A DNA stretch of 64,000 nt from Bdellovibrionales bacterium (lineage in GTDB: Bacteria; Bdellovibrionota; Bdellovibrionia; Bdellovibrionales; UBA1609): contig DAHVQG010000005.1 in assembly GCA_027317865.1 (NCBI GenBank), forward strand, positions 32,001-96,000. The letters are read 5' to 3'. A program made the position numbers and the translations under genes. Each line of letters starts with the position of its first letter. The stretch's first letter is position 1. Below are positions 37,930-64,000 of the stretch, one piece after another. The notes beneath the pieces were generated by a model that saw nothing but the letters and a program-made list of their open reading frames with translations, was not told the origin of the DNA and searched no databases.

Positions 37930-38511
37930 TTACGGATGCCGGCCCAGCGCTTGCGTGCACTGTGAGCCAAATTCCTGAAAATATTGATCACAAGCGAAAT
38001 TCGCGTCAGTGCAATTCGATTCAAAAAGAGTCTCAAAGGGGCAGCTAAAGTTCGCGCCTTGAGTGACCACGCTTGTAAATTGCCCTTTAGAGATAACCTT
38101 AGAGCCTTTTGTCAGTTCGTAGTGAATGACATTTTTGCCCATTCCAAGCAGCGGCTGTTGAAAAAGTGACTGAATGAGTAAATTGATGCTCCCGCTTTGG
38201 CCCGTTTTTGAGTTGTATTTAACCGTTTTCACGGTTTGACTACCGTTTGAGTGAGTTGCGATTAGCTTCACGTGATCGGCATTTACGGGGCCAGCTATAA
38301 AGACATCAACACTGTTAGGTACCGTCGCCCACGTATTACAATTATACATTTGAGTCCCCATGCCGAACGGCGATTGGCATTGGACATTGACAGCTCCGTA
38401 TACGGGATCGATTTGCCGGTTATTACCGTATTTAAATCCCGGAGCAGCCAAAGCCGGTAGGGCAATAATTGAAGCGAAAATGAATAGGCCAAGCGACAAA
38501 AACGATTTCAT
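37930..38511 (-). CDS. Hypothetical secreted protein, Cys-containing and N/Q/S/T-rich
   Basis: Signal peptide ending ALA-A, six Cys; GGGGG RBS. Confidence 0.7.
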   Translation of the reverse strand: MKSFLSLGLFIFASIIALPALAAPGFKYGNNRQIDPVYGAVNVQCQSPFGMGTQMYNCNTWATVPNSVDVFIAGPVNADHVKLIATHSNGSQTVKTVKYNSKTGQSGSINLLIQSLFQQPLLGMGKNVIHYELTKGSKVISKGQFTSVVTQGANFSCPFETLFESNCTDANFACDQYFQEFGSQCTQALGRHP

Positions 38512-38534
38512 ACATCCCCCTAAATTTGAGACTT

Positions 38535-43851: not shown

Positions 43852-44208
43852 TCAGCCAGCGGCAAGCTTTGGGATGAGTACTTGCCCTGCAAAAAGTGTT
43901 TGAAAAGGCTCGCGCTGGTTGGTGTGCAATTCCCGTTGCCCCGAGAGTGGAATCGGTTCTTCAGGCGACTCGCTGCCGTTCATTTGAGTGTCGATTGCAC
44001 CGTCGATGAGTTCGTTCAAATTAATACCGAGCGTCTGGAGCATGGAGCACAGGTCCCCGGCTCGGATTTCCGTGTGCTCTTTGAAAAATCGGTTTACAGA
44101 AATACGAGACATTGAACAACGTTTAGCGATCTGGTCTTGGGTTAATCCTCTCAGTTTGGCTAATACGGCAAGTTTTCGACCAAGGCTATTTTCTTGCGAG
44201 TCTCCCAT
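43852..44208 (-). CDS. XRE-family helix-turn-helix regulator
   Basis: RGLTQDQIAKRCSMSRISVNRF; G8 RBS. Confidence 0.8.
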   Translation of the reverse strand: MGDSQENSLGRKLAVLAKLRGLTQDQIAKRCSMSRISVNRFFKEHTEIRAGDLCSMLQTLGINLNELIDGAIDTQMNGSESPEEPIPLSGQRELHTNQREPFQTLFAGQVLIPKLAAG

Positions 44209-44302
44209 AATATCCCCCCCCGTTTTTTTGCGCGCGGTTCGTATACCGATTACGCATTATATTTTTGCCGGCCCCCTAACGGGCCGACACCAATACAACA
44301 GT

Positions 44303-52450: not shown

Positions 52451-52638
52451 CTGGTGTCTCCTTAATTTTTTCTTCTTATCATGTACTGGCGGAACAGTAT
52501 ATACAACAACTTTAGAAACAATTGAAAAAATAACCGTTGTAGTGGATGTTTGATAGCAAAATGTTTCTAACAGAGCTCTGCGTCGGCATGTTATAGCAAA
52601 TTGAAAGGCTCGAATACATTTTTGGGGGGGGATCAAAA

Positions 52639-54099
52639 ATGACGACGGCACCAACCGCAGCCGAAGCGGATTCCACAGGATTTTCGCTACCGCAACTTGT
52701 AGCCAATAAATTTCGTGACCGCGAGTTTTTCGGCCATCCCATAGGTTTGTATGTGCTGTTTCTAACTGAAATGTGGGAGCGGTTTTCTTACTACGGTATG
52801 ATTTCGCTGCTCGTCTTATACATGAACGAGTTTTTGTTGAAAGATCCCGCCCGAGCCCATCAGATTTTTGGTTATGTGGCTTTTGCCCATGTGATTACGT
52901 CTGTGTTCGGCAAATTGACGGCCCAGCAGATGAGTTCACAAATTTTCGGCCTTTACACTGGATTTATTTACGTCACGCCCATTTTCGGCGGCATGCTCGC
53001 CGACAAAGTTTGGGGTCAGCACAAGTGCATTTATTTGGGCGGGATTTTAATGGCTATCGGTCACTTTATGATGGCATTTGAAAGCTGTTTTTTGTTTGCA
53101 CTTTTATTTCTCATTCTCGGGTGTGGGGCGCTCAAACCGAACATTTCAACTCAAGTTGGTAATTTGTACCCCGAGGGTGATGAACGTCGCGATCGCGCCT
53201 TCACTATCTTTTATATGGGCATCAACCTTGGCGCGGTACTGTCGCCGCTTGTCTGCTGGACACTTGGAGTAGAGTTCGGTTGGGGCTACGGATTTTCTGC
53301 TGCCGGCGTTGGCATGTTACTCGGTTTGGTTATTTATTATCTGGGATCAGGGCTAGTACCACGTCATCCAGTTAAAACAAAAGCCGATATGGAAAAGGAA
53401 CTTGAAAATAAAGATGAAGCGAAAGAAGAAAAGCCACGCAAGAGGCCATTGACGAAACAAGAATGGTGGCAAGTTTGGGCTTTGGTAATTCTTTGTATTA
53501 CGAACATGGCGTTTTGGGCTGTGTATATGCAACAAAGTAACACGCTGATGTTATGGTCGGCACAACGGACGAACTGGCATTTTTGGATTTTTCACATTCC
53601 TCCGGGCTGGTATGCTAGTTTCAACCCCGCATTTATCATTCTATTCGCCCCGCTACTCGATATATTTTGGGGCTGGCAATCCGGGCGCGGCAAAGAGCCG
53701 TCAACCGTGATCAAGATGGGCATTGGCTGTCTGCTTTTGGGTTCGTCATACTTCATTATGATGGCGGCGGCACATTTTGTTCCGCCACACGAGCGCGGCA
53801 GTGTCATGTGGCTCGCGGCGACGACATGGGTTTTTACGATGGGCGAGCTCTATTTGTCACCGACGGGGCTTTCGCTTGTCACCAAAGTGGCACCAGGGCC
53901 ACTGCTGAATACCATGATGGGTTGTTGGTTTTTGTCGTATGCCGTTGGTGATTGGTTAGGTGGTGACATCGGCATGTTTTACAACGTGATGACCAAACAA
54001 CATTTCTTTTTGCTTTTGGCGGCCATCGGGATCATCACGGGCGTTATTTTCTTTTTGCTCAAACGACCGCTCAGTCGTAGCATACAGCAAGACATTTAA
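52639..54099 (+). CDS. Proton-dependent oligopeptide transporter (POT/PTR)
   Basis: GHPIGL, EMWERFSYYGM, FYMGINLG, GELYLSPTGLS. Confidence 0.95.
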   Translation: MTTAPTAAEADSTGFSLPQLVANKFRDREFFGHPIGLYVLFLTEMWERFSYYGMISLLVLYMNEFLLKDPARAHQIFGYVAFAHVITSVFGKLTAQQMSSQIFGLYTGFIYVTPIFGGMLADKVWGQHKCIYLGGILMAIGHFMMAFESCFLFALLFLILGCGALKPNISTQVGNLYPEGDERRDRAFTIFYMGINLGAVLSPLVCWTLGVEFGWGYGFSAAGVGMLLGLVIYYLGSGLVPRHPVKTKADMEKELENKDEAKEEKPRKRPLTKQEWWQVWALVILCITNMAFWAVYMQQSNTLMLWSAQRTNWHFWIFHIPPGWYASFNPAFIILFAPLLDIFWGWQSGRGKEPSTVIKMGIGCLLLGSSYFIMMAAAHFVPPHERGSVMWLAATTWVFTMGELYLSPTGLSLVTKVAPGPLLNTMMGCWFLSYAVGDWLGGDIGMFYNVMTKQHFFLLLAAIGIITGVIFFLLKRPLSRSIQQDI

Positions 54100-60381: not shown

Positions 60382-61791
60382 TTACGGCGACGAGATCGGA
60401 TCCGAAAACCGCATCCGTTTATAAAGAGTTTTGCGATCGATACCCAATTCGCGGGCTGTCTTGTCTTTAGCGCCATCATTTTTTGAAACTGCGTATTCAA
60501 CATATTTTTGAATGACATCTTGAAGCCGCAAGAGATTTCCCGTGTATTTCACGACGAAATCGTCGCCGCCATAGGTGCTGACGCCTGATGGATTTGCCTC
60601 GATGACCAAATCGGGATTAGCCATCAAAAAATCGGAATATTTCACTTGGCTATCCGTAGCCATGACGACGGCCCGCTCAACAGCATTTTCGAGCTCGCGA
60701 ACATTACCCGGCCAAAGATATTCAAGCATAAATTTAATAGCTTCTTTCGAAAATGTACGCGCGGGTGACCCATTAACAGCGGCAAATTTTTTAAGAAAAC
60801 TTTCAGCTAACGGGAGAATGTCCTCGGAACGTTCGCGTAAAGGCGGCAAAGGAATTGGTATCACATTGAGCCTGTAGAATAAGTCGTCTCTAAACCGGCC
60901 AGCTACGATTTCTAGCGGTAGATTTTTATGAGTTGCCGAAATTACCCTGGCGTCTATGGCGCGCAACTGATTTTCGCCCACGCGCTGAATTTTCTTTTCT
61001 TGTAAGACTCGTAAAAGTTTTGCCTGAAGTTGAAGGCTAAGATCCCCAATTTCGTCTAGGAACAAAGTGCCGCCCTCAGCTTCTTCAAAAAGGCCCATCT
61101 TTTTTTCGTGAGCTCCGGTAAATGCTCCTTTGGCGTGGCCGAACAATTCGGACTCGAGCAGATTTTCTGGTATAGCCGAGCAATTAATGGCTACAAATGG
61201 CCCGGCCTTTCTTGGACTCTCGGCATGAATATAACGAGCCAGAACTTCTTTTCCTGTGCCGCTTTCGCCGTAAATAAAAACGTTGGCCGTGCTACGCGCC
61301 ACTCTTTTCGCTACTTGAAGGGCGCCAATGAATTTAGGGCTGCGGCCGATAATATTGTTGTAACTGCTTTCGGTTCCCTTGATATGTTGACGGAGTTCCG
61401 TAATGTCCTCTTTAAGCGAATTCAAATGCAGGGCGCGCTCGACTGAAACAAGAAGTTGCGGAAAGTGAAGTGGCTTAACCAAAAAATCGTATGCGCCTTT
61501 TTGAATGGCGATGACCGCATTTTCAACGGACTTTGAAACTGTGATTAGAATGATTGGTAAATCAGGTTTGATCTTCTTCATTTTTTCGATGAAATCAAAT
61601 CCTGACATTTGCGGGAGTTGTAAATCGGTAATGAGAACATCCCAATTAATTTCGTTACCTTTTTCTTGAACGGCGGACAAGGCGGATTCCGCGTCGCTGA
61701 AGCAGGTGACCTGGTACCCTTTTGGTTGGAAAAAGGCTTTTACAAGATCTAAAATGTCATTATCATCATCAACGATTGCGAGATTTTTCAA
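60382..61791 (-). CDS. Sigma54-dependent response regulator (NtrC/AtoC family)
   Basis: Receiver domain VDDD/TDLQLP/KP, GESGTGKE, GAFTGA, FLDEIG, WPGNVREL, Fis-type HTH. Confidence 0.95.
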   Translation of the reverse strand: MKNLAIVDDDNDILDLVKAFFQPKGYQVTCFSDAESALSAVQEKGNEINWDVLITDLQLPQMSGFDFIEKMKKIKPDLPIILITVSKSVENAVIAIQKGAYDFLVKPLHFPQLLVSVERALHLNSLKEDITELRQHIKGTESSYNNIIGRSPKFIGALQVAKRVARSTANVFIYGESGTGKEVLARYIHAESPRKAGPFVAINCSAIPENLLESELFGHAKGAFTGAHEKKMGLFEEAEGGTLFLDEIGDLSLQLQAKLLRVLQEKKIQRVGENQLRAIDARVISATHKNLPLEIVAGRFRDDLFYRLNVIPIPLPPLRERSEDILPLAESFLKKFAAVNGSPARTFSKEAIKFMLEYLWPGNVRELENAVERAVVMATDSQVKYSDFLMANPDLVIEANPSGVSTYGGDDFVVKYTGNLLRLQDVIQKYVEYAVSKNDGAKDKTARELGIDRKTLYKRMRFSDPISSP

Positions 61792-61928
61792 TTGTCATAG
61801 CTCCGGTCTTCATTTTTGTTTTCAGCAGAAAATTATCACAGGTCCAATTTGTTCTCAATGTCTCGTACTTTTTGTGCACGTGAAAAGCTCGCCGATCAAT
61901 CAAATCATAACACGAACAAAATCCGCGA

Positions 61929-61944
61929 TGGAATCAAGCTTGCT
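61929..61944 (+). promoter_or_regulatory. Putative sigma54 promoter for the DUF1328/OMP genes
   Basis: TGGAATCAAGCTTGCT with exact GG-N10-GC spacing and TTGCT -12 element; divergent from an enhancer-binding protein gene. Confidence 0.65.
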
Positions 61945-62061
61945 ATTTTCTGCATAAAACATTGGCGATTGAGAATTCAAATCAAGCCGGTGTTAAAAAA
62001 ATTAAATAACTGGTGCGGGTGGTATAAGGACTGAACGGCAACTGCGCACGAAGGAGAAAAA

Positions 62062-62244
62062 ATGATTCGAATGGCGATCTCGTTTTTTGTGTTAGCGATT
62101 GTCTCCTTTATTTTTGGAGCGTACGGCATCGCCGGTTTTTCTGCTGAGATTGGCCGGATTCTGCTTTTTGTTTTTCTTGTTCTTGCAGTCGTATCGTTTA
62201 TCGGCGCATTGATTACGGGCCGATCGCCGAGGCAACTGCCTTGA
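62062..62244 (+). CDS. DUF1328 (UPF0391/YtjA-like) small membrane protein
   Basis: AISFFVLAIVSFIFGAYGIAGFSAEIGRILLFVFLVLAVVS; AAGGAG RBS. Confidence 0.88.
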   Translation: MIRMAISFFVLAIVSFIFGAYGIAGFSAEIGRILLFVFLVLAVVSFIGALITGRSPRQLP

Positions 62245-62936
62245 CGAAAACGCATTTGAAACAAAGGCATTGTTTGGCGCTGACAGTTTTGTTTTGGACA
62301 GCGACGTGTTTGGCCGCCAGGGTAAACAGTCAAGCGGGCGGAGCTACGCAAACAACGGCGGCAAAAATATCGGCACAGTCAAAAATTCAGCAACGTTACG
62401 GTGGGTTCTATTTTGAGCCAGGTTTTGCTCTTGAGACCGGCCGAACGTCGTCCAGTTATCCCATGACAAATTCGGCCGGTAGCTCTGACGGATTTGGAGT
62501 GCTGGTAAGAGCGGGTTATGAATTGAGACATTTTATAATTGCGGCACTTGATTGGCGAATGGCACTCACTCAATTTCATGACGCCGCACTCGATTACACG
62601 GCTAATGCCACAAGTGCGAATTGGGCCGTATTGGGCGGGCTTCAGATTCCTAACACTGCAGTTAGGGGATGGATCGAATATATTTTTGCCGGCACCTTGA
62701 ACCCAAGTGCGGCCGGCAGTGGTCTTGACCTGCGCTACGGTGGGGCCACAGGGTATCGCATTGGCCTTGGCTATAAATTTGCCACCGATACGAGTGCAAA
62801 TATTGAGTATCAATTACTTCGGTATAACCAAACGCGTGTCGAACAAAGTGGACCCTATACCGGCGTCAATTTTAACGGGAGCACCTTGGGGGATGCCTCT
62901 CTTATTGCCGGGGTTTCGTTTCCGCTCGAATTTTGA
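62241..62936 (+). CDS. Outer membrane beta-barrel protein
   Basis: Signal peptide, alternating amphipathic strands, GYRIGLGYKF, C-terminal Phe. Confidence 0.8.
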   Translation: MTKTHLKQRHCLALTVLFWTATCLAARVNSQAGGATQTTAAKISAQSKIQQRYGGFYFEPGFALETGRTSSSYPMTNSAGSSDGFGVLVRAGYELRHFIIAALDWRMALTQFHDAALDYTANATSANWAVLGGLQIPNTAVRGWIEYIFAGTLNPSAAGSGLDLRYGGATGYRIGLGYKFATDTSANIEYQLLRYNQTRVEQSGPYTGVNFNGSTLGDASLIAGVSFPLEF

Positions 62937-63059
62937 TCATTCTTTTGACAACTGTTAGACAAGAAGCGGCGCTGGCCGGTTGGCCAGGGGCAATTCAGTG
63001 ACATGGTTTCCGCTTAGTTTTGAATTGGAGCTGGCATGGCTTGCAATAGAGATATGTAA

Positions 63060-63147
63060 GTGATTGCGTCGTTGCCCCCCCTCGATAGCAGTCACTTTCA
63101 CCCCCATCCCCCGAGACCTCGCTTTCCCCCCAAAGCGAGGTTTTTTT
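63060..63147 (+). ncRNA. Candidate C-rich small RNA (two hairpins, C-rich linker, U-tail)
   Basis: Stem GTGATTGC-GTCG / CGAT-A-GCAGTCAC with loop TTGCCCCCCCT, linker TTTCACCCCCATCCCCCGAG, terminator hairpin with poly-C loop. Confidence 0.55.
63116..63147 (+). terminator. Rho-independent terminator
   Basis: ACCTCGCTTT-CCCCCC-AAAGCGAGGT followed by a T run. Confidence 0.9.
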
Positions 63148-63154
63148 ATTGTCA

Positions 63155-63178
63155 ATTATTATACATGCGTATAATAAT
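63155..63178. promoter_or_regulatory. Probable TetR operator overlapping a TATAAT box
   Basis: Perfect inverted repeat ATTATTATAC-ATGC-GTATAATAAT upstream of the TetR gene. Confidence 0.65.
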
Positions 63179-63221
63179 ATTGAATTGGAGGATGCTGGTC
63201 ACAGATGTGGCAAAACACGTT

Positions 63222-63851
63222 ATGCCTAGACCATCGCACAATATAGACAAGCGAATGCTTGAAGCCGCAAAAAAAATCGTTTGTGAGCACGGCTGTAGTG
63301 GTATTCGGATCCGGGACATTGCGGCCAAGGCGCACGCGAACCTCGGGATGTTTCATTACTACTTCAAAAGTAAGCGGCGATTCACCAAAGTTTTATTGCA
63401 AGACTGCTATGACGATTTTTTTAGCCGTCTTTCGACGGCCTCGCGCGATGGTGACCGTGCAATTGATCAGTTGCGAAGTGTCTTACTTGCCGCGGCAACA
63501 TTCGTGAAGCAAGAACACAAATTTTATTCCGCGCTTTTCAAAGATATTTTAAATGAAAACCAAGAAGTTTTAGAGTTCGTCAGATCGAATTTTCCGCGCC
63601 ATATTCAATTGATAAAGGAGCTGATACTACGGGCGCAAAAGGAGCAAGATATCGTGAAATTGCCCTTTCCACAGGTGATGTCATTTCTAATGACCAGTCT
63701 GAATCTACCGACGCTCATTGCCTATGCTCTTGAGGCGGGCGTGAAAAAAACCGGTCGTACTAGTAAATACAAAGTCGATATAGGCTGCATAGTGTCTGAT
63801 GCGGCAATTAAAGAGCGCCTCAATATGGCGCTCAGGGGGCTTGCGCCGTGA
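63222..63851 (+). CDS. TetR/AcrR family regulator
   Basis: MPRP..., IRDIAAKAHANLGMFHYYFKSK HTH. Confidence 0.92.
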   Translation: MPRPSHNIDKRMLEAAKKIVCEHGCSGIRIRDIAAKAHANLGMFHYYFKSKRRFTKVLLQDCYDDFFSRLSTASRDGDRAIDQLRSVLLAAATFVKQEHKFYSALFKDILNENQEVLEFVRSNFPRHIQLIKELILRAQKEQDIVKLPFPQVMSFLMTSLNLPTLIAYALEAGVKKTGRTSKYKVDIGCIVSDAAIKERLNMALRGLAP

Positions 63852-64000
63852 AATCTAATTTCGTGACAATTATCATTGCGATTTTAATAGCTGCGCAGGG
63901 ATTTTCGCTAAAAGCACAAGCGCAAAAACAAAATTCATTTTCAATGAGCCTTAAACAGGCTGAAGCGCGAGCCCTTCGTTTTTCGGATCAGTTAAAGGCC
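63848..64000 (+). CDS. Probable TolC-family outer membrane protein, N-terminal part (runs off window edge)
   Basis: GTG overlapping the TetR stop; signal peptide MKSNFVTIIIAILIAAQGFSLKAQA then MSLKQAEARAL, typical of a TolC N-terminus. Confidence 0.6.
   Translation, partial: MKSNFVTIIIAILIAAQGFSLKAQAQKQNSFSMSLKQAEARALRFSDQLKA

Follow-up and report, generated by a model that had tools for sequence, protein, structure and literature searches.

The 64,000-nt stretch of a Bdellovibrionales genome analysed here (the window; G000:C38:32001-96000, from an assembly of 42 contigs that is 99.2% complete) carries on its plus strand, at positions 63060-63147, an element that our comparisons support as a conserved, structured stand-alone gene for a small RNA (sRNA) and not as the mere terminator of an outer-membrane protein (OMP) gene. 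The sequence at this place agrees with an earlier description of it, made from the DNA letters and called here the earlier note. We consider it fairly probable (about 0.6) that the RNA is a trans-acting, Hfq-independent repressor directed against Shine-Dalgarno sequences, a view that combines an observed structure and its conservation with a mode of action suggested by analogy with known RNAs. According to this proposal, the sRNA would be transcribed separately and measure ~88-92 nt. A short linker joins its 5' hairpin to its Rho-independent terminator, and runs of 5-7 C are displayed in all three unpaired parts. The partners of these C-runs would be G-rich Shine-Dalgarno regions, among them the G5-G9 tracts used as ribosome-binding sites (RBS) by a subset of genes. 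Pairing would block the 30S subunit and repress translation. Such an RNA would act without Hfq and would offer up to three redundant binding sites per molecule. The source genome (2.65 Mb, 47% G+C) contains a single copy of the sRNA according to a genome search.

Folding of 63050-63155 as RNA gave a minimum free energy (MFE) of -34.7 kcal/mol. The mean of 200 dinucleotide shuffles used as control was -12.7 (standard deviation 2.6; z = -8.47) and 0/200 shuffles were as stable. The fold agrees with the ~88-nt layout proposed in the earlier note, namely a first hairpin of 12 bp, then a linker, then a terminator whose loop is C6 (coordinates are given in Table 1), and hairpin 1 begins 123 nt past the OMP stop codon, where more than 120 nt had been claimed. 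The stem of hairpin 1 counts 12 pairs, 8 in one block and 4 in another, with a single A bulging out; if the AA at 63058-59 is included the count is 14. It closes the loop UUGCCCCCCCU (63072-63082) with its C7. The core of the linker between both hairpins, CACCCCCAUCCCCC, is single-stranded. The terminator has the loop CCCCCC at 63126-63131 and a U7 tail at 63141-63147, and a consensus scan calls it as well, with 13 pairs and a loop of 6. Altogether four runs of at least five C fall within 75 nt (on the minus strand these are G5+ runs), with spacers of 13, 2 and 19 nt. When terminators were counted in the whole 2.65-Mb genome with a strict finder (hairpin + T5), CCCC was present in the loops of 2 of 117, and C5+ only in that of the sRNA. 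Among 5,953 T6 runs of this genome, 4 are preceded within 90 nt by at least two C5 runs (two of these 4 are one other locus), and only the one at the sRNA is preceded by four.

Relatives of the element were found in several ways. A BLAST search against 60 relatives gave a copy with 78% identity in G006 and partial matches in G001, G002, G005 and G007. Searching with the terminator pattern found the element in 7 of the 109 family genomes; these 7 represent two genera, and the pattern in reverse, used as control, found 0. A pattern scan across genome contigs returned 34 loci, 8 of which are the sRNA; 13 others that were inspected are ordinary terminators behind coding genes (Caulobacter, Nocardia and other taxa). 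Seven copies folded singly (G001, G002, two of G004, G006, G007 and G061) show the same design each time: the loop of the hairpin holds C5-C9, the linker is rich in C, and the loop of the terminator holds C5-C6. Their z-scores range from -6.6 to -9.5. The 5' hairpin of the G061 copy (L024:1497-1591) has gained an inner hairpin with a C5 loop of its own, so that three C-loops and the linker are displayed. Two copies are present in G004 (L030:1499-1576 and L031:1499-1578, on the same contig, 8.7 kb apart), and likewise in G141 and G184.

A covariance model (R1) was made from the window sequence alone, its matches were aligned, and the model was rebuilt as R2 from 13 sequences. Plain MAFFT alignments of the homologues misaligned the 3' half of hairpin 1 and were dropped; model-based alignments were used. 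In the 39 best copies 90.1% of the cells pair, compared with 62.6% after shuffling (0/500 shuffles reach the observed value) and at most 50.1% with the partners slid by 1-3 columns; these alignments are fitted to the model, so the pairing figures lean its way. Both helices covary: changes on both sides are seen in 24 of 25 pairs, that is, in 12/12 pairs of helix 1 (84% of cells paired) and 12/13 of helix 2 (95%). For the set of 13 copies the figures are 92.3% paired against 67.3% shuffled, with 22/25 pairs changed on both sides. A run of at least four C is kept in loop 1 of 38/39 copies, in the terminator loop of 38/39 and in the linker of 24/39, where the value 38/39 is partly selected for because the model rewards C-loops. 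Conservation of the C-runs does not extend to their flanks, such as the AU that separates the two runs of the linker. Some subgroups show CCCCUCC, which holds the anti-Shine-Dalgarno core of 16S rRNA.

With R2, matches were found in 31 of the 109 family genomes at E <= 0.05, representing 14 of 35 genera. An order-wide sample gave 33/151 genomes at E <= 0.01, distributed over families f1 (10/31), f10 (10/31), f12 (5/30), f2 (3/26), f5 (2/4) and f3 (2/7); seven other families of that sample had no matches. Within family f10, 36/151 genomes match at E <= 0.001, among them all members of two genera (g84 10/10, g57 8/8). In a phylum-wide sample the matches from beyond the order were all weak, with 4.8e-5 as the best value. 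The f5 copies (G133, G141) and f10 copies (G184, G227), judged by eye, are clear homologues that include the promoter block described below. Scanning of 61500-64000 with the 4,227 models of Rfam 15 (cmscan, E <= 10) gave 8 chance-level matches, none over 63060-63147.

G-tracts are a real class of ribosome-binding site in G000. With the starts of open reading frames (ORFs) set by a crude rule, which let in at least two 'RBS' cases internal to known domains (GGT, FtsW), a start of an ORF of at least 80 amino acids (aa) lies 3-13 nt after 70 of 299 G6+ runs, compared with 15 of 299 C-run controls. For G5 runs the counts are 222/1,489 against 110/1,489, and for AGGAGG 94/337. Starts lie most often 4-8 nt after the G-tract, and the 16S rRNA has the canonical 3' end CCUCC. 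G6-N3-9-ATG occurs 76 times in G000 against 8 for the reversed control and 75 times against 23 in G006, and it is in excess in most of the 109 genomes. The use of G-tracts as Shine-Dalgarno-like elements is a lineage trait of the family. Pfam assignments for 40 ORFs with G-tract leaders include two subtilases, a trypsin-like protease, a GH15 and a BNR protein, a GspD secretin, an RHS protein, a flagellar rod protein, two DksA/TraR proteins, and POT, HTH, GST and transposase proteins.

Three leaders in the window are candidate targets (Table 1). Duplexes of the three unpaired segments of the RNA with these leaders are predicted at -12 to -19 kcal/mol; for the 52639 leader the values are -18.8 for loop 1, -15.9 for the linker and -18.3 kcal/mol for loop 2. 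Conservation of the G-tracts differs among the three. Orthologues of the HTH_3 regulator have a G5+ run in 4 of the 5 sRNA-bearing genomes checked and G4AGG in the fifth, the POT orthologues have G6 in G006, G5 in G001 and weaker G-rich sites in three others, and the G-run of the secreted protein is kept in one of the three orthologues found (G006 only). A full-length duplexfold ranking of 2,150 crude start regions was discarded: intramolecular structure is ignored there, so the energies were unrealistic (-40 to -52 kcal/mol), and the choice of starts also favoured G-rich sites.

Several observations weigh against the repressor proposal. All three leaders that the earlier note had named as exact complements exist on the strands given there, including GGGGGAUGUAUG upstream of the 38511 gene on the minus strand, but the match of GGGGGAUG is generic, having 50 occurrences in the genome. 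On both strands of G000 we counted GGGGGATG 50 times and GGGGGAT 158 times, and the 'exact complement' matches are generic pairing of C-runs with G-runs. Of the 57 G7+ runs of the genome, 12 are RBS-like. An excess of G6-N3-9-ATG over the control is found also in genomes with no R2 match (G026 59/10, G020 62/11, G132 45/4), so the G-tract leaders do not single out the regulon of this RNA, and inspection of the 109 genomes showed no apparent link between presence of the sRNA and abundance of G-tract leaders. The 40 ORFs mentioned above are of mixed function, and 15/40 belong to no Pfam family. Many of the weaker R2 matches share the design and may be analogues rather than homologues. To these points belong the leaning of the pairing and C-loop figures towards the model and the crude choice of ORF starts described above. 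Nine sequencing runs that hold the studied stretch are all metagenome runs of DNA type and 0 are RNA.

Some of these points would fit a protein-binding or decoy RNA, in which the C-runs are sites for a KH-type or other poly-C-binding protein, or act as a sponge. Three or four equivalent short loop motifs are also typical of protein-titrating RNAs, the C-runs are conserved without their flanks, and no specific target stands out. Still, the G-tract ribosome-binding sites are abundant and exact RNA partners for the C-runs, and the well-studied RNAs of the same design all work by base pairing, for which reasons we regard a decoy as unlikely.

The genes next to the sRNA argue for an independent transcription unit. 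Neighbours vary among genera. A divergent gene lies upstream in G061 (aldo/keto reductase) and in G007 (AHSA1), as do divergent ORFs in G002 and G133, and in G141 and G007 the gene downstream of the sRNA is convergent. Neither a 3' untranslated region (UTR) nor a 5' leader can therefore be the general explanation. In G000, G005 and G006 the order is shared: a divergent NtrC-type regulator, a DUF1328 gene and then the RNA, which in G005 follows straight after the DUF1328 gene with no OMP gene between. Efflux genes lie 3' of the RNA in G000 (TetR/OEP) and G006 (OEP), and the contig of G005 ends inside the RNA.

Of 15 copies lined up, 13 have a block of the form TTGC-NN-TA(G/T)NNN-N7 directly 5' of the hairpin; the exceptions are the two g4 copies. 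The TA(G/T)NNN element 7 nt before the hairpin could be, by its sequence, a sigma-70 -10 box (TAGAGA in the focal copy), and the transcript probably starts at 63056-63060. TTGCW is also the -12 consensus of sigma-54. By eye, a GG is placed exactly 10 nt upstream in 7/13 copies (G001, G004a, G004b, G133, G141, G184 and G227), and AG-N10-GC is found in 3/13. The focal copy and those of G005 and G006 have TGGCAY-N3-TTGC, which is GG-N8-GC. Canonical TGGCAY-N5-TTGCW is the commonest spacing in G000, with 21 sites against 1-11 for the others, and the N3 form has 11 including the focal one. A sigma-54 reading of the focal promoter was rejected because of its spacing, as 10 nt are required. The gene rpoN of G000 (C22:3-560, minus strand, locus L157) encodes a core-binding domain (E = 7e-59) and is cut by the contig end, for which reason the sigma-54 DNA-binding domain PF04552 was not found in this genome. 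Such a truncated rpoN could be misread as absence of sigma-54.

It is important to note that the focal promoter is poor: GG-N8-GC misfits sigma-54, and TAGAGA has neither the final T nor a good -35 element. With a promoter so weak on paper, the RNA could come largely from read-through of the OMP operon, which also counts against the proposal of a separately transcribed repressor. A stronger form of this view, that the element simply ends the DUF1328-OMP operon as a structured 3' UTR with terminator and has no role in trans, could appeal as well to the co-orientation of the OMP gene and to the fact that only a U-less stem-loop (62972-62987) lies between. However, homologues stand behind divergent or unrelated genes, hairpin 1 and the C-runs are conserved across families although a terminator requires neither, and a C5+ loop is found in just 1/117 terminators of G000. 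We find this explanation improbable. The claim of the earlier note that the element is more than a simple terminator has held up, given the varied contexts, the conserved upstream block, the covarying helices and the retained C-runs.

A cis-acting leader or attenuator of the downstream TetR-efflux (OEP) genes, working by conditional read-through of the terminator, is very improbable. While the next genes on the same strand are TetR/OEP in G000 and OEP in G006, in G141 and G007 the gene that follows is convergent and in other genomes it is unrelated, the fold shows no evident alternative anti-terminator pairing, and the TetR gene has a promoter-like site and a palindrome of its own. That the OMP-TetR spacer holds a DNA-level element, i.e. 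an i-motif or G-quadruplex tract or a protein-binding site, is barely credible: there are four minus-strand G5+ runs in 75 nt, but their spacers are poor for a G-quadruplex, and an RNA of the plus strand is indicated by the compensatory changes that both helices show and by the strand-specific T-run behind them.

The proposed repressor has counterparts in other bacteria. C-rich loops and linkers of RsaE/RoxS in Firmicutes and 6C/B11 in Actinobacteria pair with the G-rich Shine-Dalgarno sequences of many mRNAs. These RNAs have other folds and belong to other lineages, and their Rfam models were unmatched in 61500-64000 at E <= 10. Membership in the cuckoo, RsaE or RNAIII families, with which the earlier note had compared the element, is without support, as no Rfam model matches; the likeness is in mode of action alone. 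RepG of Helicobacter pylori uses a C/U-rich terminator loop to pair with a homopolymeric G-repeat in an mRNA leader and is the nearest precedent for a terminator loop that would bind a G8 tract. It differs in having one main target with a G-repeat of variable length; homology to RepG was compared via the Rfam scan only.

RepG is named as a similar H. pylori sRNA in the paper on sX13 of Xanthomonas (PMC3771888, excerpt). In the same excerpt sX13 is described as Hfq-independent, with 4C/5C loops that repress mRNAs having 4G/5G motifs at or near the RBS, and G-rich motifs are reported at the RBS of ~5% of Xanthomonas genes. Like sX13, the RNA described here belongs to a Gram-negative bacterium and has C-rich loops, and the G-tract RBS class of G000 is comparable to those ~5%. 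As far as the excerpt describes it, sX13 differs in having three stem-loops and a 5' tail, another sequence and a G+C-rich gammaproteobacterial host; the Rfam scan showed no homology. In Listeria monocytogenes three pyrimidine-motif sites of LhrC all bind the Shine-Dalgarno region of lapB without Hfq, according to the part of the LhrC paper used here (PMC4132741). The layout is like that of LhrC1-5 as given there, where a single-stranded segment separates the 5' hairpin from the terminator and the same pyrimidine-rich motif is shown by each part. In contrast, the LhrC motif in that text is CUCCC...UUUU and here it is a pure C5-C7 run, and LhrC is a multicopy, LisRK-induced RNA of Firmicutes, while 1-2 copies per genome are found here; there is no sequence or covariance-model similarity (no Rfam match). 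An Hfq gene was not found in the 99.2%-complete G000 assembly, which fits the Hfq-independent action reported for sX13 and LhrC.

Table 1. Parts of the sRNA, its promoter region, candidate target leaders and neighbouring features (window positions)
Feature	Position	Strand	Evidence or remark
Hairpin 1	63060..63095	+	63060-63071 with 63083-63095; RNA fold and covariation
Single-stranded linker UUUCACCCCCAUCCCCC	63096..63112	+	17 nt, two C5 runs; unpaired in MFE and centroid structures
Rho-independent terminator	63113..63147	+	13-bp stem 63113-63125/63132-63144; fold and consensus scan
Promoter-like block TTGC-AA-TAGAGA-TATGTAA	63041..63059	+	directly 5' of hairpin 1
TGGCAT-GGC-TTGCA motif	63032..63045	+	sigma-54 -24/-12-like, but GG-N8-GC not GG-N10-GC
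Candidate target leader G8-AUCAAAA-AUG	52624..52641	+	POT-family peptide transporter (52639 gene), G8 7 nt before AUG
Candidate target leader G8-AUAUU-AUG	44206..44221	-	118-aa HTH_3 regulator (44208 gene), G8 5 nt before AUG
Candidate target leader GGGGGAUGU-AUG	38509..38520	-	193-aa secreted protein (38511 gene), no Pfam family
OMP_b-brl beta-barrel outer-membrane gene	62241..62936	+	Pfam E = 5e-5, below curated cut-off
NtrC-type sigma-54-dependent response regulator, divergent neighbour	60382..61791	-	Pfam Response_reg + Sigma54_activat + HTH_8
Near-perfect palindrome TCAATTATTATAC-ATGC-GTATAATAATATTGA, 13-nt arms	63152..63183	+	sequence

Regarding the immediate surroundings of the focal copy, the OMP gene is the upstream neighbour and lies outside the RNA. 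Its transcripts may run on to the sRNA terminator, and in G000 such read-through transcripts probably stop there too. A stem-loop CTGGCC-GGTT-GGCCAG at 62972-62987, 36 nt past the OMP stop and without a U-tract, is the sole structure in the interval between OMP stop and sRNA; it could serve to process or stabilise the OMP mRNA, or terminate weakly. Downstream, the palindrome overlaps a sigma-70-like site at 63149-63178 (10/12 matches) just 5' of the TetR gene (63192-63851, TetR_N). Judged from its sequence, it is probably the promoter and operator of this gene, which would be auto-regulated, and it lies outside the sRNA. An exact 11-nt direct repeat, TTGAATTGGAG, is present at 63020-63030 and 63180-63190, spaced by exactly 160 nt, so that it flanks the sRNA promoter, the sRNA and the TetR operator. 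The repeat was not seen in G005 and G006, and it may mark a local duplication or insertion that placed the RNA beside the TetR gene. A GTG at 63060 starts a frame of 263 aa (63060-63851) that crosses the sRNA and continues into the TetR gene; the start of TetR is likely at 63192 or 63222. Gene callers could thus take the sRNA as part of an over-long TetR ORF, a warning for annotation.

A second C-rich RNA candidate of ~55 nt was noticed outside the window, at G000:C37:127952-128031 (locus L158:253-332). Its single-stranded part is AUCCCCCC; next comes the terminator hairpin GCGGCCUGG/CCAGGUCGC, which has the loop CCCCCCUUACCCU and a U9 tail. The sigma-54 promoter that precedes it, TGGCATAGGGATTGCT, is canonical. 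In G006, G004, G001 and G007 the RNA is conserved, and so is its TGGCAY-N5-TTGCT promoter; the candidate was not found in G133 with the query used. The Qrr sRNAs of Vibrio, which need Hfq and lack C-rich character, have sigma-54 promoters and are encoded beside an NtrC-type regulator. The divergent NtrC-type neighbour in G000, G005 and G006 and the GG-N10-GC element in 7/13 homologues and at the C37 sRNA resemble this arrangement, whereas the focal copy has GG-N8-GC and the family is C-rich. An NtrC-type regulator adjoins the sRNA only in the closest clade (G000, G005, G006; loci L005, L007).

Sequence comparison places the sRNA in an uncatalogued family with a wide distribution among Bdellovibrionales, and the class of mechanism proposed for it is known from LhrC, sX13, RsaE/RoxS, 6C and RepG. 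A survey of Bdellovibrio sRNAs reported eight attack-phase RNAs from one strain (APsRNA1-7 and merRNA), and the portion of its text at hand does not mention C-rich motifs (PMC3627812, excerpt). This was the sole Bdellovibrio sRNA survey found in our literature search, and post-transcriptional control in Bdellovibrio-like bacteria is almost unexplored. The analysis provides an RNA family with a covariance model, a second C-rich RNA with a sigma-54 promoter and a recognisable class of G-tract RBS, which together make a concrete regulon hypothesis. A further phylum would join the lineages that use C-rich loops against G-rich RBS, in support of the view, expressed in the sX13 paper, that this design is a general and recurrent solution (PMC3771888, excerpt). 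A wider and rather doubtful idea is a lineage-wide translational switch of 'poly-C against poly-G', in which at least two C-rich RNAs would jointly gate ~70-290 genes with G-tract RBS. The sRNA family and the ~55-nt RNA with the sigma-54 promoter would both be tied to NtrC-type regulators, and the genes controlled would include secreted proteases, glycosidases, a secretin, peptide uptake and DksA-like factors. If this is true, the switch could couple the programme of hydrolysis and uptake in these bacteria to a signal from the environment or from prey.

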